Sequence record: NC_054930.1
Length of the DNA stretch: 64,000 nt
Direction: 5' to 3' (one strand)
From: Escherichia phage PP01
Numbering within the stretch: position 1 is the first letter of the stretch; every line of letters starts with the position of its first letter. A program made the position numbers and the translations under genes. The notes below the pieces were generated by a model. The model made no database searches, was not told the DNA's origin, and saw nothing but the letters and a program-made list of their open reading frames with translations. This document shows positions 12 to 59,580 of this stretch, piece by piece.

Positions 12-2189
12 TTAGGCCGCAAGGGCCTTCATAGTTTTAGCGATTTGGGAAACTTCATCATCACTTAAAGAGTTGCGATAACCGATGAAGTCAGAAACAA
101 TACGGAATTTCTTGGTAAACTCAGCAACCATTTTATCACTGTTTTTTGAAGCATTATTTGATAATACATCAAAAAGATTAGTTACTGTCCAGATGTCATG
201 ACCGATGGTATCTTTTCCACCATTAAAATATACACCCTGTAATGAACTAACCATATTAGCGAGTCGTGTATATTCTTCAGAAACTTCATCTACACTGAAG
301 TACTTCATCATAAAATCTAATTCAGGATACTTGATAATTTTATCAATATATCGTTTAGCTGAACTTGAATAACCTACATACTTATCATAATCTACATCAT
401 CAAAAGCATCTACATATAAATCACGCAAAGCTTCAAAAATACATTGGCACTGACCGAGTTCTTTTACCTTTTTCTGTAAAAGCGGACGAATAACATAAAA
501 TTCATTAATGCCAATAAGATTAGCCATACGAATCAAAATATTCATAGATGGATGACAAAGAGATGTAGTACCATCCATAGAGAAAATATCAGAACGATGC
601 ATATACGCTACATAACCAGTAATTTCATCTGCTTCTGATGTGAGCGTAAATAATTCCTCTTTTTCCCACCGCCCGTCTTTAATTTCAAACTTAAATGCTG
701 TAGCAGCTTTAGGACAAGGAGCTTTACTTTTAACTACCTTTGGAATATAACTTTTTACTAAAGCTTCAATTTCTGACAAATAATGAATGTTAACTTCATC
801 ACTTTCAAACATCGCCATAATATCAGGAAGTAAATCAATCTGTGATTCTACTTCCGGATTAATAAACAGAAGACGCTCATTGTGATGAATATTTAAAGTG
901 TTATTAAATTCTTTATCATCTAACGCATGTGCTAATCCACGGACAATATTAACACGATTTTTAATATTATCAATAACGATATTAATTTTTGTTGTATTAA
1001 TACCAAACAGACGATAACTTGATGCAACGGCTGAAGTTTCATGACTTTGCTTAATGCGTTTCAGTCGAGGGTCAAGATTTACTTCATACACAACTCCTGC
1101 ATTGCATAACTTACTATCAGGTTCAAACATGCTTTGCATCTTCTTATATGACAGATTTTTAGTCGTAAATTTGACTGAATTACTAATCATATAATCTCGA
1201 GCAGAATACCCCATCTTCATCAATTCACGGTATGTGTGACGAGGAGATGTAGATTCTTTAAATCGTTTTACATCTTCATTAAATGCTTTCTCACTGAGTT
1301 CTTTAACTCGTTCAATAATATTTTTACGAGTACGATCATCCAGTGAAAGAGCCTCACGAGATGGAGCAATATCAAGTGAACCCATTGGAAACTTAATGTA
1401 ATTCACTTCATTGCGAATGCTTAGCCAGTTACGGTCTCTAATAACACCATCGATAGGATAAACAATACCGCCATAGATAGCATATAATCCACCACGATCA
1501 GGCCAGTATCTTTCTGGATTTACGCCATAATAATCATCAAAATCCGGAAAATAATCAATTTCGCGGTCAAGACCATTAATGATAGCCAAATCTTTGAACG
1601 GTCGCATGATATAAGAAACTTCATAAGCAAAGTTTCTAAAGTCTTTTTCTTCAACTGGAACTACGATTTCAATACCAGTTTTATCATCTGGACCCATTTC
1701 TTTTACGAATGTAGGTTTAATCTGTGGACCATCACCATCCATATAAGCTACATAACCACGAATTTCACCTTTATGGTATGAAGTAATACTAAACGTATCA
1801 GTATAACTAAATGGAGATTTAGAACCTAAACCAAATCCACCAATGAAATCGTTAGATTCAGCCTTAGATGAACTGAAGTATGAATTATACAGACCAGGAG
1901 AATTATCATCACCCTGAATATCAAAATCACTCATACCCGGACCAAAATCTCGACAAACAAATCGTGGATCTAAACGTCCAGGAACTTGTATGATAAATTT
2001 TTCAGGATTTCCATTGAGTGCATGGGCATCAATCATGTTAGTAATCAATTCACGGACTACTGCGCGAATTTTGTTTGTATACAAATCAGATGACAGAATT
2101 TTAAATACTTTAGGAGATGCTGTGATGCTAAATGCTTTTGATTTAGAACCATTACCAAGAATTGTTTCTTTTTCAGTGGTGATAATCAT
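12..2189 (-). CDS. rIIA: rIIA protein (lysis inhibition / rapid-lysis locus)
   Basis: 725-aa ORF; length, N-terminus and position at the window start match T4 rIIA. Confidence 0.93.
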
Positions 2190-2428: not shown

Positions 2429-2458
2429 ATTATACCACATCCTTGTGGTAAAGTAAAC
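2429..2458 (-). promoter_or_regulatory. T4-type early promoter (minus strand)
   Basis: Minus-strand GTTTAC, 18 bp, TATAAT preceded by GTGG; upstream of rIIA.1. Confidence 0.65.
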
Positions 2459-4278
2459 TACTGGCTCATCCATTCTTTGCGAAGGTCAGCATTATCTCCC
2501 ATGAGCATTTCAAAAAGCTCTTTCCAGTTCTCAGGAAGTTTAACAACATCATATACTGGATTTTGAATCATCTCACGATATTCAGATTTTTCCAAAGAGC
2601 CAAGTCCCTTAATATAACGGATGCTATGTTTAGGTAGAGCATCTTTGGCACTCTCATATTCAGCGACTGTATAAAACCATTCTTGTTTTTTACCGACTTG
2701 AGCGATGATTACAGGAGTTTTGACAAAGCGAATTCGTCCTTGCTCAAACAGTTCTGGCCAATTACTAAAAAATCCAAGAAGAGAAGGATAAATGCTTCCT
2801 AAACCATCATGGTCAGCATCGGTCATAATAGCAATATTATGATAATTCAAGTTTTCAGCTTTTTCACCAAGAACTAATCCAGTGATTGCGCAAATATCAA
2901 ATAGTTCTTTGTTTTTAAGCATATCAGCATATGACATACCCCAACTGTTGAGAACTTTACCGCGCAATGGATAACCACCGTGAAGTTCTTTATCACGAAC
3001 ATCAATAAGATATCCGATAGCAGAATCACCCTCAGTCAAGAAAAGAGTAGTGTCAGCATCTTTACCGCAAAGATTCGCTTTGATATGTTTATGAACCTTA
3101 GCTTTAGAAGCCTTTTTAGCTGCTTTAGTTTCTGCTGCTTTTTCTGCTGCCAATTTACGGGCCAAGGCAGCTTCAATAATTGGCATCAGAATTGCTTCAT
3201 TATTTAAAATAGCGCGTGAAATCTTTTTAGCATCAAGTTGAATATGACTACGAATTTCGCCAAATGGAGAAGTCAAACGCTCTTTAGTTTGAGAATCAAA
3301 TCGCATGTTTTTCATATCACGGACAAACATAACGATAGTCAAACATTCTTTGACACGTGCTTTAGTTACATCAATTTTGAACTTACGTTTGATTTGTGGA
3401 ATAAGGTCTTCACAAATATCATCCATAACACAGTCAATGTGATGGCCACCATTCTTAGTGTGAATGTTATTCACGTAAGTTAATTGACGAAATCCATCCG
3501 GTGAACGACCAACCGCAATAGAACAATTTTCTTGTTCTTGAACAATAGCATGTTCATCATATTGGCGTGCATATTTCTTAAAATTACCCTGAACCTTTTT
3601 ACCGTTAAAGGTAAATTGAATATCAGGATAAACTACTGCAAGTGTCTGGAGACGATCCAGTGTAATGTCAAGATAAACTTGAGATAGCTCATTAGTTTCA
3701 AATGACATAAAATCAGGAATGAAAGTAACGCGAGTTCCTTTCCATTTTCCAGGAATAGTTTCCCATGATTTATTTTCCATGCCATTTGAACAACGAACCA
3801 CAATATTATTTTGACCGTCGCCAGTTTCACCGACAAACATCACAGAAAAAATGTTAGTTAAACTAGAACCAACACCGTTCATACCGCCAGTGACGCGTTC
3901 TTTATCATCACCAAAGTTGCCGCCTGCTTTTGGAATAGTCCAGGCGGCAACAGGACCAGGAATTTCTTCACCAGTAGGTGTTTTAACCATCGCTTGTGGA
4001 ATACCGCGACCGTTATCTTCAACTGTTACTTGATTGTTTTTAATAGTAACATTAATTTTATTCGCGAATTTAAACTTAGTACGAATACCTTCATCTACTG
4101 AGTTATCGATAATTTCATCAATAAGCTTAACAAGACCAGGTACATACTGAACACTTTCCCATTTACCAAACAGAAAGCGCTCATGCATTTCATTAGCAGA
4201 AGAACCAATGTACATGCCGCTACGCTTTTTGATATGTTCAATATCGCTCAGAATTTTAATTTCATTCTTAATCATCAC
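2458..4278 (-). CDS. 39: DNA topoisomerase II large subunit (GyrB-like ATPase + Toprim), uninterrupted
   Basis: 606-aa continuous ORF; GHKL ATPase motifs (DNGRGIP), Toprim LTEGDSA; corresponds to T4 gp39 plus gp60 as one gene. Confidence 0.9.
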   Translation of the reverse strand: MMIKNEIKILSDIEHIKKRSGMYIGSSANEMHERFLFGKWESVQYVPGLVKLIDEIIDNSVDEGIRTKFKFANKINVTIKNNQVTVEDNGRGIPQAMVKTPTGEEIPGPVAAWTIPKAGGNFGDDKERVTGGMNGVGSSLTNIFSVMFVGETGDGQNNIVVRCSNGMENKSWETIPGKWKGTRVTFIPDFMSFETNELSQVYLDITLDRLQTLAVVYPDIQFTFNGKKVQGNFKKYARQYDEHAIVQEQENCSIAVGRSPDGFRQLTYVNNIHTKNGGHHIDCVMDDICEDLIPQIKRKFKIDVTKARVKECLTIVMFVRDMKNMRFDSQTKERLTSPFGEIRSHIQLDAKKISRAILNNEAILMPIIEAALARKLAAEKAAETKAAKKASKAKVHKHIKANLCGKDADTTLFLTEGDSAIGYLIDVRDKELHGGYPLRGKVLNSWGMSYADMLKNKELFDICAITGLVLGEKAENLNYHNIAIMTDADHDGLGSIYPSLLGFFSNWPELFEQGRIRFVKTPVIIAQVGKKQEWFYTVAEYESAKDALPKHSIRYIKGLGSLEKSEYREMIQNPVYDVVKLPENWKELFEMLMGDNADLRKEWMSQ

Positions 4279-4983: not shown

Positions 4984-5160
4984 TTACCCTTTAAGTAAGT
5001 CGTAAAAACCACCATTCACATGCTTAGGAGCAGAAGGCCGACGAGTAGACAAACGATGACATTTAGGGCAAACATCATTTTCTCGTTCAGAAATCTTTTT
5101 AATTTTTTCATATTCATGCCCGCAATCTTCGGATTGGCATTTATAATCATACATTGGCAT
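4984..5160 (-). CDS. small zinc-ribbon protein
   Basis: 58-codon ORF found by hand (below ORF-track cutoff); two CxxC pairs (CQSEDC ... CPKC); fills gap between flanking genes. Confidence 0.4.
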   Translation of the reverse strand: MPMYDYKCQSEDCGHEYEKIKKISERENDVCPKCHRLSTRRPSAPKHVNGGFYDLLKG

Positions 5161-13439: not shown

Positions 13440-13910
13440 CTAGCGATAAAAACCAAAATAACGATTAGTTTCAATAATCTTTCTTTCTTCTTCGGACATT
13501 CTCCAGCGTAGTCCAACATCAAAATGAGCCCAGACCATCTTAACAAATGCATTTATATCTTTAATATCTTCAATAATGAATGTTTTACTTTTAGAAGGTT
13601 GACTCGCTAATTTAACTTTATCGTCTTCAAACAGGTCAAAAAGACCATATTCATGAGCTCTTTTATAGCCTTTAATAGTTAAAGCTTCAGAAGAAGAAAA
13701 TGGTGAATCAGTATTCTGCAAAATATCTTCAGTATGCTTTATAATTAGAATAACATTTTCTGGATATTTTCTTTCTTTTATATCTTTAATTAAAATATCC
13801 GGATTTTCTGCTAAAGGAATAATTAATGAGCACTTTTTATCAAGTGTATTTACTGATTTACCTTCTTTGGACATAAATTCTATTGAATAATGTTTTGCTA
13901 CTTCAATCAT
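13440..13910 (-). CDS. hypothetical protein
   Basis: 156-aa ORF in early gene chain. Confidence 0.5.
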
Positions 13911-14063
13911 GTGATTTCCTCTTGCCTACTAATGGGCCGTCAGGAATTTTGTTTTCCTGGATATATTTCTCATTTTCTTCCATCATTTTACTGCCAATTT
14001 TAAGAAGCAAATCCAATGCTTCATTTGCTTTAGCCTTGGCCTCTTCTAGCGTCATATCTCTGT

Positions 14064-14267
14064 TCACGATTTATCCCCATAGATGTCTCTCATCAATTTA
14101 AGCGCTGAGCGTTCTAATTTCTTTTCTTTCTCAGCACTAATCATTGATTTCATCCATTCTTCTGATTCGTTCTGCATTTCTTTATTTGCTTGTTCAACCC
14201 AACCATCATCAATGTACATTGAGTTTGGTCTACTGAACCATTCAAGCATTTTCTTCAGAACTTTCAT
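14064..14267 (-). CDS. small hypothetical protein
   Basis: 67-aa ORF. Confidence 0.4.
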
Positions 14268-17864: not shown

Positions 17865-18029
17865 TTACTCTTCTTTTTCTTTAGATTCCTCTTTTTTCTT
17901 TTTAGGAATCTGTTCAGGACCTTTATTTACTGCAGCGCCTGACGTTGTTCCAGTGGAGATATTTTCAGGATTACCACCCGAATCTCCAGCTACCATATCT
18001 TCTTTGATAAATTCTTTATATGTTTTCAT
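17865..18029 (-). CDS. small hypothetical protein (61.1 position)
   Basis: 54-codon ORF found by hand (MKTYKEFIKEDMVAGDSGGN...); fills gap between 61 and the next gene. Confidence 0.35.
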   Translation of the reverse strand: MKTYKEFIKEDMVAGDSGGNPENISTGTTSGAAVNKGPEQIPKKKKEESKEKEE

Positions 18030-19364: not shown

Positions 19365-19607
19365 CTATTTTACTAGCATCAATAACTGTTTCTCTAACTT
19401 GACGATTTTACGAAAGTATCTTTTGCATTGGCGAATCTGCCGCTTCGTAGGGCGCACAGCAAACTTAATAAATTCCACTCGACCAAATGGAGGACTTTCT
19501 TCTGCTGGAATATCTAACACCAATTCCCACGTATCTGCAACAAGTGCTTTGAATTGAGTATTTTTCCTGACATTATACGGAGTAGGTTTAAATAAAACAA
19601 TATGCAT
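19365..19607 (-). CDS. small basic hypothetical protein
   Basis: ORF track 19365-19649; the Met at 19607 directly abuts the dmd stop. Confidence 0.4.
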   Translation of the reverse strand: MHIVLFKPTPYNVRKNTQFKALVADTWELVLDIPAEESPPFGRVEFIKFAVRPTKRQIRQCKRYFRKIVKLEKQLLMLVK

Positions 19608-19608
19608 A

Positions 19609-19791
19609 TTATCCTCGACAATCAACTTCACATACTTTCTTGTCATCAATGAAAGCTTTAATTAATGCTTTATTAACTTCAGCATATTGAGTAGTAGCCC
19701 ATTGAACGTCATCTTTCATCATTGTGATTTCTTTAGTAAACATGCTTTCATTCTTAAACCGCCCCATAAAAACTACCTTTACCAATTCCAT
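19609..19791 (-). CDS. dmd: Dmd-like antitoxin (inhibitor of RnlA/LsoA)
   Basis: 60 aa; position next to gene 41 and size match T4 Dmd. Confidence 0.6.
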   Translation of the reverse strand: MELVKVVFMGRFKNESMFTKEITMMKDDVQWATTQYAEVNKALIKAFIDDKKVCEVDCRG

Positions 19792-24469: not shown

Positions 24470-24619
24470 TCAATTGATGCATTCATATTTAATTTGTAAC
24501 AGTAATAAACTCCAACCTATAATAAGTGGCGGAATCATAAGAGGAACTGTTACGCTATAGTATATACTTATTATAATCATCAAGATTAAAAGCAATACTG
24601 CTAAAATTTTGCTTTTCAT
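24470..24619 (-). CDS. small hydrophobic peptide
   Basis: 49-codon ORF found by hand (MKSKILAVLLLILMIIISIYY...); ATGA overlap with imm stop. Confidence 0.35.
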   Translation of the reverse strand: MKSKILAVLLLILMIIISIYYSVTVPLMIPPLIIGWSLLLLQIKYECIN

Positions 24620-25685: not shown

Positions 25686-28382
25686 TCAGCCAAACAGGAA
25701 GTCTAACGAAGCTTTTTCTTCATAGTCCATACCAGCCGATTCACACATGCCTGCAAGCGGTTTAACAAACGATTTTTGGAACAAAGTTGAGTAGTCAATC
25801 CAAGATAGTACGTCAGAACGAATTTCTTTTGGAAGTTCCGTACCCGATGGCCAAGCAATGCACTTGTCACCAAATGGATTTCCTTCACGTAATGGAAGAA
25901 CCATTACCTTATTTCCATCCAAAATTGGAGCTACACCTAAACCACTAACAGCTCGACGATAAGTTAACACACCACGAATATGGAACGGGCATTTAAATCC
26001 TGGCCAACCTTTATCGTCATATTTCGCTATATCGTTCGCGGTTTTTACTTCAGCAATAACTTTATAGTCAAGTTGACGATATTCTTTCTCAAAGTTCTTG
26101 TAGTATTCTTGGACAGACTCTTCGCCTTCCTGAAGAATACGACGAATACTTTCTTCGAGAGCTTCTTGTACTGCTTTTGGTGTTGAACTCTGCTGAGTTT
26201 CCATACCCATGATTTTTAGATGTGGTTCAGCAAATCGCTTATCTTCCATATCATAAACGTTCAGAGCATAACGCTTTTTCGCTTTCCAAAATCCACCAAC
26301 ACCCTTTGAACCAAGTGGAGGGCAAGAAATAGCTTCACGGTCCATATGCATCAGATGCTCGCGGTTATTCATATAATCACATAACTCACGATATGCAACA
26401 TCAATCATAGGTTCCATCTTTTTCTTACCGAACTGATTCATGAATTCAACTAAATCGTTCTGCTCTTTGAATCGGTCAAGACCTACTTTTTCAATTACTT
26501 TATCTACACAAACATATACCGAATCAGTATCACCTGCTGCGATGAAATCTTCGCCATTAGTTCCGCATACTTTATTCAGATACTCATTAATTTTACGAGC
26601 AATCCACTGAATACCAACTTGGCCGAAAATTGTGATAGCAGTAGCATTTCGCAAATCATAGTAACGGAAATGAATATTACCAAGAGCACCATAAAGACTG
26701 TTAATAAGAATTTTACGGTTCAGCTGATTTGTGTTAGCAAGTGTAGCTGCTTTTTCACATTCTTCGATCAGACTATTAAGAACAGATTCAGTATAATTCG
26801 ATAGTTCATTTAAGAAATCATCACTGAACTTAACATATCGTTCAACTTCAGGTTTAGTTGAACAAGACCCTGCGCCTTTCATAATAATCTTTTTAATAGC
26901 TTCGGCATTCATTTCTTCAGCGAACATTTTCTTTTTCCAATCTTTACGCTGGAAAAATACTTTAGCGATTTCCTTTGGAATGATACCTTCTTGATGCTTA
27001 TCGTACATCCATCCATTCGGAGAACAAGAATATTCATCACTTGGCTTAGGAGCTGTTCCTGCGATATATTCATGAATTGGATGAACTTTAAACTGCCCAC
27101 GAATAGTCTCAGGACTAATGTTAACCTGACGAATAATGCTAGGATACAGAGACGTCAAGTCAAAACTCATAATGTATCGACGAGCAATCGGTTTAGGTTC
27201 AAACACAAATGCACCTGGAAAACTCTGTTTAACGTGCGAACCTTGTTGAGGAATAACCTTATGTTCACCTTTCAGTGAGTTAAAAATAATAGCATCCCAA
27301 GTTTTAATAGGACTCATTACACCAGAAAAAGGCATTTTAGCATAATAAGACATACTTAAAACTAGATCGATAAACCCACGAATTTTATCAATTGCTTGAA
27401 CTGATTCTACGTCAATGATGTTATAACTAATGTATCGTTGATGATTAGTCTCACGAAGTTTATTAATAGGACCATCGTACGGCAATTTACCTTTTTTGGT
27501 TTCGTGCTGAGCAACTGATTCCAAAGAGAATGATGGCAAATTAGTAAATGCGAATTTTTTGTACAAATCTAAATAATCAAGAATAGATACGCCATCAATC
27601 GAATAAATTTCTTTGCTACCGTACATATTTTGAATTAGTTTAGATTTTACTCGACCGATTGGAGAGAAACGTTTCATACTGCGTTCACCTAGAATCATTT
27701 TAACACGATTCATGATATACGGAACGTCAAACCCCTCAATATTCCAACCAGTAAAAATAGCAGGTCGTTTCTGTTCCCAGAGATTGATATATTCCATGAG
27801 CATATCACGCTCATTATCGAATGGCATATAAATTACTCGGTCAAGAATTTCTTGAGGAACTTCATCACCACCTTCACAGTCAAGCTTAGCAGCTAACTTT
27901 GCATCCCATTTTGATACTGAACCGTACATTGAATTCAAAAGGTCGAAAACATAAAAACGATCGTCAATTGAATCGTAATGAGTGATAGCATCAATTTCAT
28001 ATTCTGCTTTCATTGGGTCAGGAAATTTATCACCAGTAACCTCAATGTCACAATTAGCTACACGAACAAATTTTCGGTCATAAACAATTTCTGAACCATA
28101 TGTATCACTAATATAAGCGAGTTTAAAATCGTTCATACCGAGAGCTTCGAGACCGATGTCTTCCATTCGCTTCATCCAATCTCGAGCATCTTTCATTGAT
28201 GGAAATTTTTGAGGAGCGCAGTTTTTACCATAGATGTCTTTGTATTTTGACTCTTCCTTACAATGCCTAAACATAGTTGGAAGATATTCTACTTCACGGG
28301 TACGTTCCTTTCCATTTTCATCAATATAACGTTCAACAATGTTATTTCCGACTGTTTCAATAGAGATATAAAATTCTTTCAT
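25686..28382 (-). CDS. 43: DNA polymerase (family B)
   Basis: 898 aa as in T4 gp43; exo and pol motifs (DIE, YGDTDS). Confidence 0.95.
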   Translation of the reverse strand: MKEFYISIETVGNNIVERYIDENGKERTREVEYLPTMFRHCKEESKYKDIYGKNCAPQKFPSMKDARDWMKRMEDIGLEALGMNDFKLAYISDTYGSEIVYDRKFVRVANCDIEVTGDKFPDPMKAEYEIDAITHYDSIDDRFYVFDLLNSMYGSVSKWDAKLAAKLDCEGGDEVPQEILDRVIYMPFDNERDMLMEYINLWEQKRPAIFTGWNIEGFDVPYIMNRVKMILGERSMKRFSPIGRVKSKLIQNMYGSKEIYSIDGVSILDYLDLYKKFAFTNLPSFSLESVAQHETKKGKLPYDGPINKLRETNHQRYISYNIIDVESVQAIDKIRGFIDLVLSMSYYAKMPFSGVMSPIKTWDAIIFNSLKGEHKVIPQQGSHVKQSFPGAFVFEPKPIARRYIMSFDLTSLYPSIIRQVNISPETIRGQFKVHPIHEYIAGTAPKPSDEYSCSPNGWMYDKHQEGIIPKEIAKVFFQRKDWKKKMFAEEMNAEAIKKIIMKGAGSCSTKPEVERYVKFSDDFLNELSNYTESVLNSLIEECEKAATLANTNQLNRKILINSLYGALGNIHFRYYDLRNATAITIFGQVGIQWIARKINEYLNKVCGTNGEDFIAAGDTDSVYVCVDKVIEKVGLDRFKEQNDLVEFMNQFGKKKMEPMIDVAYRELCDYMNNREHLMHMDREAISCPPLGSKGVGGFWKAKKRYALNVYDMEDKRFAEPHLKIMGMETQQSSTPKAVQEALEESIRRILQEGEESVQEYYKNFEKEYRQLDYKVIAEVKTANDIAKYDDKGWPGFKCPFHIRGVLTYRRAVSGLGVAPILDGNKVMVLPLREGNPFGDKCIAWPSGTELPKEIRSDVLSWIDYSTLFQKSFVKPLAGMCESAGMDYEEKASLDFLFG

Positions 28383-34791: not shown

Positions 34792-35807
34792 TGTGTTGCC
34801 TCTACATATAACTGATTTGCATATTGAATAAGTGCTTCGCGGTCAGAATCAGTGATGTCTGGAATTGCATTAATATATTCTTCCATCAACGTTTGAAGAG
34901 ATTGAACTTCAACTTCTTCACTATCATCTGACTCGACAGAGTTATCAATCTTTGACACAACTCGTAATGAATGCACAACTTTTTCTAGTTCAGATTCGAA
35001 CTTCGTTAGATTTTTGTCTACTTCAGTTACTATAACACGTACTGATAGATTTGTAAAATCTTTATAGTCAATTTTTCCTTTAAATGGATAATGAATTCTA
35101 CGATGCCAGGTAGTATTGTTTGGAATAAATTCCATTCGTTCTGTTTCTGTATCAAACATCCAGAACCCGCGAGGGTCATTCTCGTCACCTGCAGTTAGTG
35201 TCCATGGTGTCCCAATATATCTGACGTTTGCAGCCTCAGAAATAGTATGGAAGTGACCAGACCACACTTCTTTATAAGTCTTAAGGAAATCAGGTTCAAG
35301 ACCGTGAGATTTCATTCCTTTATAAAAATAAAATCCATTCAGTTCCCAGTGACCAACACAAAAAGAAGCAGATGAAGTTTTGATGTGTTCAAGAATTTCA
35401 CCAGTATTTTCTTCGCACATCCAAGGAATTAAATCAATCAAACATCCGTCAAAATCTACTGTAGTAGGCTTATCATATACTTTAACATTAGGATATTTAG
35501 CCAAAAGCTCAGTAGAAGCATTTGGAGTTAAAGTATTTTTAAAGTGCATATCATGGTTTCCTACAACAGTATGTAGGGTAATACCAGCATCATCAAGCAT
35601 TTGAACTATTTCACGAGCGAACTCCATAGTTTTATGCGTGATTGCTTTTCGCACATCAAAAATATCGCCGTATTGAATCCATGTAGTAATTCCGTTTTTC
35701 TTAGAATATTCTATTGCTTGTTTAATTCCATCCAACTGAATGGATTGAACCCACTCATCATCGGCTTTAACACCTAAATGCCAATCACCTAAATTTAAAA
35801 TTTTCAT
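34788..35807 (-). CDS. 47: recombination nuclease subunit (Mre11/SbcD-like phosphoesterase)
   Basis: 339 aa as in T4 gp47; metallophosphoesterase motifs GDWH, GNHD. Confidence 0.9.
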   Translation of the reverse strand: MKILNLGDWHLGVKADDEWVQSIQLDGIKQAIEYSKKNGITTWIQYGDIFDVRKAITHKTMEFAREIVQMLDDAGITLHTVVGNHDMHFKNTLTPNASTELLAKYPNVKVYDKPTTVDFDGCLIDLIPWMCEENTGEILEHIKTSSASFCVGHWELNGFYFYKGMKSHGLEPDFLKTYKEVWSGHFHTISEAANVRYIGTPWTLTAGDENDPRGFWMFDTETERMEFIPNNTTWHRRIHYPFKGKIDYKDFTNLSVRVIVTEVDKNLTKFESELEKVVHSLRVVSKIDNSVESDDSEEVEVQSLQTLMEEYINAIPDITDSDREALIQYANQLYVEATQ

Positions 35808-35966
35808 ATATCAAGAACCGTCATTGAAATGCAAAATAAAATTATTGAAATAAATCCATCTGGAGTACTAAAGAACCCAATCCAACATGCTCTGGTGAAT
35901 AGATAAAACGCTAGAAAAAGTATCACATATCCAAGAAATATCATTATATCAAACTCCGTATAAAGC

Positions 35967-37186: not shown

Positions 37187-37238
37187 TTAATATCCTCATT
37201 GTTTTGGTTTATTTTACCAAAAATTTATAAAGCAATAT

Positions 37239-37254
37239 AGGAGCCGAAGCTCCT
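37239..37254 (-). terminator. terminator-like hairpin
   Basis: AGGAGC-CGAA-GCTCCT. Confidence 0.4.
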
Positions 37255-37426
37255 ATCCACATAATACACCATACAGAGGCTCATTAGAGCTTCTAAATTT
37301 TATGCGCTTATATGTTATAGTTCCTTCTGCTTTAGCTTTATCATGAGACTCTTTAAAGCGTCTCATCATTTCTACTTTAGAGGAACGAATTTTATTATAA
37401 TCTATTTCAGAAGTCTGGGCGTTCAT
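37253..37426 (-). CDS. small hypothetical protein
   Basis: 57-codon ORF found by hand; starts 5 nt after the upstream stop; ends in a terminator hairpin. Confidence 0.35.
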   Translation of the reverse strand: MNAQTSEIDYNKIRSSKVEMMRRFKESHDKAKAEGTITYKRIKFRSSNEPLYGVLCG

Positions 37427-44636: not shown

Positions 44637-45106
44637 TTTAAACTCTTTCTAAGCTGCTTCTTAAATGAAGCTATTAATTGTGTTTTAGTGTCAGATTCAT
44701 TATATTCAAATCCTCTTTGAAGCATCTCAGCCATCATTTCCTCTTTTCCTAAACGAGAAAATTCCTTTGATTTATCTCCAACGAAGTTAGGGTGAATATT
44801 ATTTTGGGTGTAATCGGATTTTAAATAAGTAAGTAAATTTTCTAGCCATTCAAGATAATCAACACCTTGTCCCTTTAAGCCAGAACGATTGAATTTATGC
44901 TTCATTTGACCTTCTGCAGCATTACAGAGATTACATAGCAACCCACGTACCTTTCCTGCTTTTGGTCCATTTAATTCATGGTCATGGTCAAGGTGATTAG
45001 CTTGAACATCAGGATTTAGTTCTCGTTGGCAAATTAAGCATTTACCGTTTTGTGCATCATAAAATTTCTGTTTTTCTTCTTTGTATAATTTGCCAGTCAA
45101 TAACAT
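44633..45106 (-). CDS. 49: endonuclease VII (Holliday junction resolvase)
   Basis: 157 aa as in T4 gp49; Cys-rich Zn site and HNH-like core. Confidence 0.88.
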   Translation of the reverse strand: MLLTGKLYKEEKQKFYDAQNGKCLICQRELNPDVQANHLDHDHELNGPKAGKVRGLLCNLCNAAEGQMKHKFNRSGLKGQGVDYLEWLENLLTYLKSDYTQNNIHPNFVGDKSKEFSRLGKEEMMAEMLQRGFEYNESDTKTQLIASFKKQLRKSLK

Positions 45107-45145
45107 AATAAAACCCTTACCTTGAATAGATAAGGGTATTTATTA
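45107..45145 (-). promoter_or_regulatory. hairpin abutting the gene 49 translation start
   Basis: CCCTTA...TAAGGG stem immediately 5' of the gene 49 ATG; T4 gene 49 is known to be controlled by RBS sequestration on the early transcript. Confidence 0.45.
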
Positions 45146-45148
45146 TTT

Positions 45149-45325
45149 TCAAGTATTGTAAAACATTCGATGCAATCGCTTATATTGTCGAATCATCTTT
45201 TTAGTAGGACGAGAATAAGTTCCTATACAAGTGGTCATATTAGGGTCAGTAGGACTTCCTTTAATAAAAAGTTTCCAAACCTTACCGCCATTTAACTTTT
45301 CAGTATAAATTAATTCGGTTTTCAT
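45149..45325 (-). CDS. small hypothetical protein
   Basis: 58-codon ORF found by hand; TAATG overlap with upstream stop; followed by hairpin. Confidence 0.35.
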   Translation of the reverse strand: MKTELIYTEKLNGGKVWKLFIKGSPTDPNMTTCIGTYSRPTKKMIRQYKRLHRMFYNT

Positions 45326-45789
45326 TAAAACGCTCGGTCAGAAAAAGAAATTTGAGTTTCAAGCCATTCAATATATTCTGCCGCAGCTTGCATCAAATTT
45401 CCTTCATAACCATCGTTATTTTCTTGTGCAGCTAATTTAGCTAATGCATATGAAATGCGTTCACCTTGAAAAGCGGCTTTAGGTTTATGAATAACTTGAT
45501 CAACTCGTTCTACGACCTCTTCAATTTCGCCATTTTCTGTGGATTCAGTATTCCACAAGCACCAATACGTAATTGGCTTATCATAGATGTTAATAATCTT
45601 TCCATCAGAAAGTTCAATTTCAATAATTCCAGTATCAGGTTCTATATCATCTTCGCATTCTTTTGCAAGTTCACGAACTTTAAAGACAGTACCTGCACTA
45701 AGTTCCGGCCAGTAATTACACAGCCCTTTATCAGCACGATTAATTCTAAACCACTTATCTACTGTAATCATGTCCCATCTCCATATCAA
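45325..45789 (-). CDS. hypothetical protein (pin-region)
   Basis: 154-aa ORF (probable start at Met 45771). Confidence 0.45.
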   Translation of the reverse strand: MIWRWDMITVDKWFRINRADKGLCNYWPELSAGTVFKVRELAKECEDDIEPDTGIIEIELSDGKIINIYDKPITYWCLWNTESTENGEIEEVVERVDQVIHKPKAAFQGERISYALAKLAAQENNDGYEGNLMQAAAEYIEWLETQISFSDRAF

Positions 45790-45894
45790 TTAAGTCATTT
45801 ATCGTTGGTTCATTATATACTGTTTCTTCATCAGTGTAAACCGGTTCTTCCGGCTCTGGCTCTACAGTTTCCCATCTAGCCGCCCACCAGGGTT

Positions 45895-46215
45895 TTATAG
45901 CGTAATCCATTCTCGTATTGTCTGAGTTACTACGCGTTCACGAGGCTCGACTAGTTCAACAGTTGGAACTGCATAATACCAGTCAGAATGGTAAGAACCT
46001 GAGCGAGATTCATTTACGGAAACATGTACATTATGTTTCGGACTAAAATAAACGCACTGCCGATATTGGCATTTGCCATCTTGTACCCAATCTTCTATTT
46101 CGACAGGTTTAAGATAATCCGAAAAATCGAAATCATAATTTTCTGAAAATGCATCATGGTCTTCGATGATTTCACTCAGAACTGCATCAACATCTAATTT
46201 ATTTTCAATAGTCAT
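45895..46215 (-). CDS. hypothetical protein
   Basis: 106-aa ORF. Confidence 0.45.
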   Translation of the reverse strand: MTIENKLDVDAVLSEIIEDHDAFSENYDFDFSDYLKPVEIEDWVQDGKCQYRQCVYFSPKHNVHVSVNESRSGSYHSDWYYAVPTVELVEPRERVVTQTIREWITL

Positions 46216-55908: not shown

Positions 55909-56451
55909 TCACTTTGAAATCATAGTTGGAATAACAGAATCAAGATAAGTCTTTAGTGCAATAGCTTCGTCTTTGGTAAATGTGACAATATGCGATCGAA
56001 AATCATCAATTTGACGAATAGTTAAGACATCTCCATCTTCATAACATTTTGATACGTTTAAAACAGTTTCATCATTCTGATTGCAAGCGTTAGTAATAAT
56101 AGCATTGCAATTTTTAAACCATTTTAAACTATGTTTTCTTTCATTAGAATAATAAAAATATTTAATCTTAGTTATAAAATTATCCCAATTATTAATTGAT
56201 AAGCATATTGACTCGCTTTCAATATTAAATCCTGGGCATAAAGAATAGAAATGAATTTTATGCTCATCATTAATGCTTACAATTTTATCAGTATAAGAAT
56301 TTTCAATTTGGGTTAAACGAACAATTTCGTTAGGCGTAAAATATAGCATATCGTCTTCTTGTGTCAAACGATACATATTATTTACTTTTTCTATAGCCAA
56401 TTCACCAAAAAGTGAACTAACTTCTAATACTAATCGTTTCGCCTCACTCAT
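55909..56451 (-). CDS. hypothetical protein (paralogue pair B)
   Basis: ORF track 55909-56454 with GTG; ATG at 56451 has GAGGAG Shine-Dalgarno. Confidence 0.45.
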   Translation of the reverse strand: MSEAKRLVLEVSSLFGELAIEKVNNMYRLTQEDDMLYFTPNEIVRLTQIENSYTDKIVSINDEHKIHFYSLCPGFNIESESICLSINNWDNFITKIKYFYYSNERKHSLKWFKNCNAIITNACNQNDETVLNVSKCYEDGDVLTIRQIDDFRSHIVTFTKDEAIALKTYLDSVIPTMISK

Positions 56452-56585
56452 CACTGTATACTCCTCTGAATCATATCAATAATGTTGTTCACCAGATTAT
56501 AAGTAAACATTGGGTAATTATATTGAATCATCACATACACAACAAACAAAATTTTCATTCTCTTCTCCTTGACAGTTGACAAGAT

Positions 56586-56615
56586 TACTATACCATAACC
56601 TTGCCAACTTGTAAA
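56586..56615 (-). promoter_or_regulatory. early promoter
   Basis: GTTTAC, 18 bp, TATAGT. Confidence 0.45.
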
Positions 56616-56781
56616 CCATTAAATGACGTTTTCAATAAAATTCTGAAGCTTTGTGTGAGCATCAACCATGATTTTCATTTCTTCTTTTGCGAAAGCTGTA
56701 CCTCTTTCCCGAGCAGAATACTCATAGTCAGAAACTGCATTAGCATATTCTTCAATTAGTTTCATTAAAAACATCTGCTTT

Positions 56782-56976
56782 TCAGTTTTCATTATTCCAC
56801 CTAATCATTTCAAGATATTGAACTAACTTAGCTTTAGATTTATCCAAATCCTTTTTAGCTGCTTCTATACCGTCGTATGAATATCCTTCACAATGCTCAA
56901 CTGCTAATTGATATGAATCTATTTCAATATCACGTGCTAATTTAATGATTTTTTCAAACTGTTCGCGTGTTAGCAT
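56782..56976 (-). CDS. small hypothetical protein
   Basis: 64-aa ORF. Confidence 0.4.
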   Translation of the reverse strand: MLTREQFEKIIKLARDIEIDSYQLAVEHCEGYSYDGIEAAKKDLDKSKAKLVQYLEMIRWNNEN

Positions 56977-59000: not shown

Positions 59001-59186
59001 TTAAAGCGTATTCACATAAGCTATTAATTCGTTTTCTTTCTTATCAAACCGGTCAGCAAATTCTTCTTGTTGTTCGGGAGATAGCGGGCCGTATTCATCA
59101 TAAAAGGTGTTTGCTTCTGCATGCTCATCTAGAAGTTCATGGATAAGCTCAAACAATTTATCTTTTTGTTCTTTACTCAGACTCAT
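59001..59186 (-). CDS. small acidic hypothetical protein (tk.1 position)
   Basis: 61-aa ORF. Confidence 0.45.
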   Translation of the reverse strand: MSLSKEQKDKLFELIHELLDEHAEANTFYDEYGPLSPEQQEEFADRFDKKENELIAYVNTL

Positions 59187-59352
59187 ATATTAATTTCCAG
59201 GAGTTTTAAAATAATTCGCTTTTGCTTAAATATTTCCGTAGTTAAATGGTCAGTATCTTTTTGACCGATTCCAATGGCAAAACCTTTATTAACAGCGAGT
59301 TCAATTAAATTATCAAGCTCACGTAACACTTCATATTGTAACTCAAAATTAT

Positions 59353-59580
59353 TCATTTTGGTTTACCTTCTTTAACGAAATCAGGATAAGGATAAAATCC
59401 TGAATAAAATCCTTCACCTTTATGATTGATGCATCCTTTATTAGAACAATAGCACCAATAATCGAAATCACAAGCCATTTCATCATTACATAAAGCAAAA
59501 ACAACTGGCCATTCACACTTTTCGCAGTGGGCATTTTTAAGAATACTAGTTTGGCTCATAACCATGTAACCTTTAAACAA
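59353..59580 (-). CDS. Cys-rich small protein (putative zinc binding)
   Basis: 75 aa; HCEKCEW...CNDEMACDFDYWCYCSNKGCINH. Confidence 0.45.
   Translation of the reverse strand: MFKGYMVMSQTSILKNAHCEKCEWPVVFALCNDEMACDFDYWCYCSNKGCINHKGEGFYSGFYPYPDFVKEGKPK

Follow-up and report, generated by a model that had tools for sequence, protein, structure and literature searches.

Seven genes below a 60-amino-acid cutoff in the early region of a T4-like phage, with a paralog of the toxin inhibitor TifA among them

Seven compact minus-strand ORFs of Escherichia phage PP01 (NC_054930.1) are very probably real accessory genes, small and translated, in the part of a T4-like genome that is transcribed early. 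We refer to them as ORF1 to ORF7 (Table 1), and by the window we mean the whole stretch of DNA that was analyzed, 64,000 nucleotides of this record. The ORFs exist, with conserved frames on which purifying selection acts, and each falls into a known family. All seven are already catalogued in PHROGs/Pfam and annotated in relatives; the finding is correct and ordinary, carrying little weight as a discovery and some practical value for annotation. One lead worth an experiment is ORF5, a member of the family of the T4 toxin inhibitor TifA, which could widen the known set of phage inhibitors of toxin-antitoxin defense.

The window covers the left arm of a Tequatrovirus (T4-like) genome and shares ~95-98% identity with known isolates. 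It starts with rIIA (12-2189, minus strand), and its gene order is collinear with those of T4 and phage ime09. A 2.5-kb piece around 4984-5160 matched 701 phage records at a best identity of 98.5%, nearly all of them T4-like phages of Escherichia and Shigella. For a 24-kb piece, no match in the phage collection was better than ~95.8%, on which basis the window reads, as a sequence, as a mosaic Tequatrovirus. The large subunit of topoisomerase II (2458-4278) is encoded by one fused 60plus39 gene of 606 aa that lacks the gene 60 split, the 50-nt translational bypass, and the mobA insertion of T4, and the same holds for ime09 and RB69.

Frame conservation was assessed by tblastn of each ORF against 50,697 phage records, and identities were assigned by tblastn and record annotation with T4, ime09, RB69, and JS98 as reference genomes. 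Codon alignments were constructed from orthologs in T4, ime09, RB69, JS98, VR7, an Erwinia phage, and IMG/VR contigs. Because IMG/VR scans returned just 5 loci for ORF3 and 6 for ORF5, relatives were instead drawn from the collection of annotated phage genomes.

All seven ORFs are present where the initial annotation placed them, with ATG starts and stop codons, apart from the start of ORF7. The same annotation described stop/start overlaps with neighboring genes, which we find for ORF3, ORF5, ORF6, and ORF7, whereas ORF1, ORF2, and ORF4 are set off by gaps of 1-3 nt; the overlaps range from 1 to 17 nt. Shine-Dalgarno motifs are weak for ORF4, ORF5, and ORF6. At the 34% G+C of the window, the probability that one particular frame stays open for 49-58 codons is ~1-2%, so seven gap-filling ORFs on the same strand are not expected by chance. 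The non-coding plus strand of the window holds 52 ATG-initiated ORFs of >=49 aa, which makes ORF length alone weak evidence. The decisive evidence for the seven genes is conservation, not ORF length.

Table 1. Small genes, the tifA ortholog, and the alleles of the pin-gene 49 junction (coordinates are those of the window unless a segment is named)
Feature	Coordinates	Strand	Description
ORF1 = 39.2	4984-5160	minus	58 aa, FmdB-family zinc ribbon
ORF2 = 61.1	17865-18029	minus	54 aa, hydrophilic
ORF3 = 42.1 (RB69ORF054c)	24470-24619	minus	49 aa, very hydrophobic
ORF4 = a-gt.2	37253-37426	minus	57 aa, basic
ORF5 = RB69ORF087c / RB32ORF078c type	45149-45325	minus	58 aa, TifA family (DUF7279)
ORF6 = 49.1	45755-45910	minus	51 aa, acidic
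ORF7 = mobD.2a	56619-56792	minus	57 aa, DUF7438
tifA (61.4) ortholog	19365-19646	minus	adjoins dmd; DUF7279, 71.3 bits
modA.4	13903-14067	minus	~51-54 aa; phrog_2681, E=1.7e-37; conserved in T4, ime09, JS98
47.1	35804-35944	minus	46 aa, predicted membrane protein; phrog_6693, E=1.5e-31; 100% identical to T4 47.1
mobD.2 type	56451-56582	minus	downstream of ORF7; phrog_3515, E=9.8e-22 (residues 9-42); conserved in T4, ime09, RB69
phrog_3452 member	59183-59356	minus	57 aa, tk region; E=4e-33, full length; 4-nt overlap with both neighbors
Window allele of pin-49 junction			pin, then ORF5
ime09 allele of pin-49 junction	segment L002 43300-43440		ORF5 cleanly deleted
T4 allele of pin-49 junction	segment L004 16850-16990		in-frame deletion; last 15 ORF5 codons fused to pin
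Allele of one IMG/VR contig	segment L010 430-830		pin with that tail, plus full ORF5

The tblastn search for broken frames in relatives found the frames kept, in 366-1381 records per ORF. Most matches are near full length, and the genera represented include Tequatrovirus, Mosigvirus, Dhakavirus, Gaprivervirus, Winklervirus, and others beyond them. In all seven ORFs, variation is in excess at the third position of codons, and nearly every comparison gives a dN/dS of ~0.1-0.4; for pairs from different genera, dS has reached saturation and dN is low. Each ORF matches a PHROG (E from about 7e-12 to 3e-38), and four of the seven score above the gathering threshold of a Pfam family (Zn_ribbon_8, DUF5486, DUF7279, and DUF7438). 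An NCBIfam search of the seven produced a match for ORF1 only, and a PADLOC search with all seven produced none. ORFs 2, 4, 6, and 7 each combine a profile match with a T4/RB69-like gene neighborhood, and both sequence (79-100% identity with T4 or ime09) and synteny make them orthologs of T4 61.1, a-gt.2, 49.1, and mobD.2a, respectively. All seven genes have been annotated in RB69 since its original record. The view that such micro-genes are often real thus stands for these seven, with conserved frames, purifying selection, known families, and named counterparts in relatives, and it is only by the 60-aa cutoff that they were missed.

Frames are broken in single lineages, each time by a one-base insertion: T4 39.2 (+1 T), T4 mobD.2a, and ime09 42.1 (+1 A). 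These frameshifts, together with the deletion of ORF5 on at least two occasions, indicate that none of these genes is essential. For 39.2 and mobD.2a, the T4 reference carries minority alleles with frameshifts, which makes T4 a poor template for both.

The seven genes would sit on long minus-strand polycistronic early transcripts, and their tight gaps and overlaps would let ribosomes that finish an upstream gene re-initiate; we infer translational coupling, as we do every biochemical function proposed here for the seven. Time-resolved omics of T4 recorded early RNA for 39.2, 61.1, a-gt.2, 49.1, and mobD.2a (PMC9697503, supplementary files 4 and 6). Two of these, a-gt.2 and 49.1, fall into the class "early RNA, late protein," meaning that their products were seen; mass spectrometry neither classified nor detected the proteins of 39.2, 61.1, and mobD.2a, and 42.1 lies outside the annotation used in that study (PMC9697503). 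Our search of the literature on T4 ribosome profiling of small proteins returned nothing specific, and a T4 structural-genomics paper (PMC8076793) mentions none of the seven genes.

ORF1 (39.2) is flanked by goF and an RB69ORF005c-like gene, with a 2-nt gap on each side, and is annotated in ime09, RB69, JS98, and T4. It had been called a zinc ribbon from its sequence, and the assignment is borne out by scores above the curated cut-offs for both PF09723 (45.7 bits; cut-off, 34.4) and TIGR02605, the FmdB-family zinc ribbon (44.9 bits; cut-off, 31.3), and by four cysteines (Cys8, Cys13, Cys31, and Cys34) that are invariant in the window, ime09, RB69, JS98, and T4. The ORF1 frame occurs in 884 of the phage records, near full length in 850, with a dN/dS of 0.12. 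ORF1 shares its locus (goF to the 39.1-region genes) with T4 39.2 and its four cysteines with T4 39.2 and the FmdB zinc ribbon, and it is 93% identical to RB69 gp39.2; its first knuckle is C-x4-C, in contrast to the C-x2-C of the FmdB family. A PDB sequence search with ORF1 found no solved relative (best match, E=0.78). The protein is a predicted four-cysteine FmdB-type zinc ribbon and probably a small nucleic-acid- or protein-binding adaptor, and the name "transcriptional regulator" attached to 39.2 is a label inherited from annotation; we found no experimental paper on such a regulatory role. The window encodes the full 58 aa, including the conserved tail SAPKHVNGGFYDLLKG; in the T4 reference, the +1 T shortens the product to 45 aa. 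Hundreds of relatives keep the 58-aa form, and the T4 gene (segment L001 5655-5845) is a cut-down minority allele.

The products of a-gt.2, 49.1, and mobD.2a would be conserved soluble peptides. ORF4 (a-gt.2) begins 3 nt past a-gt.3, matches DUF5486 at 133.8 bits, and has its frame in 832 phage records with a dN/dS of 0.12-0.43. It starts at a different ATG than in T4, giving 57 aa in the window versus 63 aa in T4. A terminator-like hairpin (37237-37256, minus strand), with the tetraloop stem GGAGC-UUCG-GCUCC, lies over the ORF4 stop codon. ORF6 (49.1; pI 4.05) overlaps both of its neighbors, 49.2 (16 nt) and pin (17 nt), matches phrog_2382 (E=1.1e-33), and is found in 575 phage records. Its protein is 100% identical to those of T4 and ime09, and all nucleotide differences are synonymous.

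ORF7 (mobD.2a) overlaps mobD.3 by 11 nt and has its frame in 641 phage records. It had been placed with a start at 56774 (51 aa), and the upstream in-frame ATG at 56792 is likelier. An AGGTGG Shine-Dalgarno motif lies 5 nt upstream of the ATG at 56792, while the ATG at 56774 has none. The 57-aa form that begins at 56792 matches DUF7438 at 59.8 bits over profile positions 1-56 of 57 and phrog_2758 from end to end (E=3e-35), and the annotated lengths of mobD.2a are 57 aa for ime09 and 59 aa for RB69. The Shine-Dalgarno motif, the end-to-end profile alignment, and the lengths in ime09 and RB69 together make 56792 the most likely start. The gene is intact in the window, in contrast to the frameshifted 38-aa copy in T4. 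That copy (segment L004 27996-28165) is a truncated minority allele, and hundreds of relatives keep the 57-aa form.

Of the seven genes, ORF3 (42.1) alone is often overlooked by databases; the T4 reference annotation still lacks it, as do the records of most relatives. The start codon of ORF3 overlaps the stop codon of imm (ATGA), gene 42 begins 7 nt downstream, and the ORF3 frame is found in 497 phage records. The ORF had been described as hydrophobic, in agreement with a GRAVY of 1.59 and a continuous hydrophobic stretch at residues 5-41 that is broken by a proline-rich P-x-M-I-P-(T/P) kink and followed by a conserved C-terminal KYEC(F/I)N. A homolog is named 42.1 in VR7, and RB69ORF054c carries the remark "similar to T4 42-imm intercistronic region." ORF3 is the Tequatrovirus ortholog of RB69ORF054c and VR7 gp42.1, with the same length class and motifs and the same placement, with the gene 43-imm region on its upstream side and the DNA-modification genes on its downstream side. 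Its neighbor is imm, whereas a GutQ-like isomerase gene takes this place in RB69 and Winklervirus. The product would be a 49-aa inner-membrane peptide, and any link to superinfection immunity is speculation.

ORF2 (61.1) lies directly upstream of primase gene 61 and would encode a conserved soluble peptide. It matches phrog_1823 (E=1.5e-32), has a dN/dS of 0.08-0.35, and carries the conserved core DMVAGDSGGNPxxIxxGTTSGAVVNKGPEQIP. The gene is annotated in T4, ime09, RB69, and JS98, and its frame is found in 1381 phage records, including those of Klebsiella, Acinetobacter, and Aeromonas phages.

ORF5 is flanked by pin and gene 49; its start overlaps the pin stop (TAATG), and it encodes a basic protein (pI 10.2) that matches Pfam PF23945 (DUF7279) at 62.2 bits (cut-off, 24.5). 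The same profile matches T4 gp61.4 (TifA) at 72.7 bits and RB69 gp61.4 at 72.1 bits. T4 TifA is a protein inhibitor of ToxN, the endoribonuclease of toxIN (Srikant et al. 2022, PMC9391042), and its Pro-Thr cap and basic C-terminal helix (P53, T54, K55, R56, and R59) are needed for RNA binding and ToxN neutralization (Guegler et al. 2024, PMC10853763). The C terminus of ORF5, RPTKKMIRQYKRLHR, resembles RPTKRQIRQCKRYFR of T4 gp61.4, and in an alignment P40, T41, K42, K43, and R46 of ORF5 are the equivalents of these five TifA residues. The two proteins have the motif Arg-Pro-Thr-Lys-(Lys/Arg)-x-Ile-Arg-Gln-x-Lys-Arg in common. An AF2 model of ORF5 (pLDDT, 88) contains three strands and a helix at residues 42-55, right after Pro40-Thr41, so that ORF5 would resemble T4 TifA not only as a DUF7279 member but also in its predicted layout of beta-strands and a C-terminal helix. 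A Foldseek search of the model against BFVD returned no match at E<=0.001, the best being weak matches to small uncharacterized proteins of the T4-like phages S16 and Merlin, so the connection to TifA is based on the Pfam profile, the motif, and the secondary structure predicted for ORF5 rather than on fold similarity.

ORF5 differs from T4 TifA in its locus, in its length (58 aa versus 85 aa), and in a sequence with ~30% identity outside the motif. A motif scan of the window revealed only two DUF7279 members, ORF5 and the gene beside dmd, whose likely start is an internal ATG giving MHIVLF.... We ruled out ORF5 as the tifA ortholog: the true ortholog adjoins dmd in the window, and ORF5 is thus a paralog. 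RB69 carries three DUF7279 genes (segment L016 47771-47950, 48375-48491, and 19750-19962), two of which flank pin, and JS98 likewise carries three (segment L018 16951-17172, 17963-18202, and 42011-42196). The clade of the JS98 orf29 type was represented in the experiments of Guegler et al. by "tifA vB_EcoM_005," which neutralized no toxin. Their panel comprised ten homologs and did not include the ORF5 clade, and four of six additional, more divergent TifA homologs tested on plasmids, including those of a different paralog clade, neutralized no ToxN/TenpN homolog (PMC10853763).

We tentatively propose that ORF5 may be a second, functionally distinct TifA-type counter-defense protein, a small RNA-binding protein directed against an RNase toxin or defense other than the ToxN that TifA inhibits. 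RNA binding would most likely reside in its basic C-terminal helix with the Pro-Thr cap, and the protein would neutralize a host RNase-type toxin other than, or besides, ToxN. If this is true, T-even phages carry an arsenal of paralogous DUF7279 inhibitors, of which RB69 and JS98 have up to three each and the window has two, and the loss of ORF5 (T4 and ime09) and its retention (366 genomes) mirror the defenses of local hosts.

A DNA alignment of the pin-gene 49 junction (45100-45420) distinguishes four alleles (Table 1). The T4 deletion fuses 15 ORF5 codons onto pin, so that the T4 pin product has 161 aa rather than 148. ORF5 is absent from T4 and ime09 through independent deletions, and the junction sequences mark it as a dispensable accessory gene that has been gained and lost. 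Presence/absence variation is typical of anti-defense accessory genes, and the pattern of gain and loss fits a counter-defense role. By tblastn, the ORF5 frame is full length in 366/366 matching phage records; its conservation extends over the genera Tequatrovirus, Dhakavirus, Gaprivervirus, and Mosigvirus, at a dN/dS of 0.12-0.27. A terminator-like hairpin with a 10-bp stem (45113-45137, minus strand) lies between ORF5 and the gene 49 start codon.

The same junction could also be taken to mean that ORF5 is a decaying or selfish remnant of duplication and recombination, one that serves no function for the phage and is being lost. Such a history would account for the four alleles, with their two independent deletions and one partial duplication, and for the presence of ORF5 in only 366 of ~700 related records. 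We nevertheless consider it unlikely, since all 366 carriers keep the gene at full length under purifying selection over four genera, and ORF5 retains the functional PT-basic motif of TifA within a confidently predicted fold; its patchy distribution is itself what anti-defense accessory genes typically show. A more general doubt, that some of the ORFs are chance open frames over conserved DNA that is regulatory or non-coding (for instance promoters, RNA structures, or spacers), bears above all on ORF3. Open frames of ~50 codons are not rare across an AT-rich genome, as those on the plus strand illustrate; 42.1 carries the +1 frameshift in ime09; neither NC_000866, where the gene is intact in T4 (26230-26376), nor ime09 NC_019503 has anything annotated at this position; and ~13 of 20 sampled full-length matches have only imm annotated beneath them. 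The alignment of 13 homologs of 42.1 from five genera argues strongly for a protein instead, with 47-52% identity, similar lengths, and invariant IYW, P-x-M-I-P-T, GW, and KYEC(F/I)N. Within the genus, the dN/dS of ORF3 is 0.19-0.63, and between genera dS is saturated versus a dN of 0.3-0.5. The gene has a PHROG to itself (phrog_3610; full-length match, E=1.9e-24), and its start is coupled to imm by ATGA. In RB69 and Erwinia phage Virsaitis27, the homologs adjoin a GutQ/arabinose-5-phosphate isomerase gene and imm is not adjacent; 42.1 is thus kept where imm has moved or is not adjacent, which indicates that it is conserved as a gene and not as the 3' region of imm. A non-coding origin is accordingly very improbable.

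A different function has to be weighed for gp61.1, namely that it is an internal peptide packaged in the capsid, with its N terminus MKTYKEFIKE serving as a capsid targeting sequence to be cut by the prohead protease after Ile-x-Glu, as in IPI-III. The role of the capsid targeting sequence has been described (PMC3012670). The gp61.1 decapeptide (18029-18000) is identical at 8 of 10 positions to MKTYQEFIAE of T4 ipII (IPII) and ipIII (IPIII), is the sole N terminus of that type in the window, and ends in an Ile-x-Glu site of the prohead-protease type; some records even name the 61.1 homolog a "major capsid domain-containing protein." However, the part conserved throughout the family is residues 10-42 and not the N terminus. 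The equivalent stretch is degenerate in JS98 (MKSFKEVMNE) and is internal in the 92-aa protein of RB69 (KEIFKELPLFE), and for the latter reason we give the capsid-targeting reading low weight. In addition, 61.1 sits in an early replication operon and produces early RNA in T4, and our literature search found no paper linking 61.1 to a capsid targeting sequence. The JS98 and RB69 sequences led us largely to reject a working capsid targeting sequence in gp61.1, and packaging of this peptide is unlikely.

The list of small genes with which the analysis began proved incomplete, since the window contains at least four more conserved genes of <60 aa (Table 1). A 60-aa ORF cutoff drops at least eleven real genes in this 64-kb window. 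The ORF at 59183-59356 gave no tblastn match in T4, ime09, RB69, or JS98. A 33-aa ORF (56518-56619) that overlaps the ORF7 stop has no PHROG match, and we did not count it as a gene. The conserved part of the mobD.2-type gene is ~34 aa, and its true start is probably internal.
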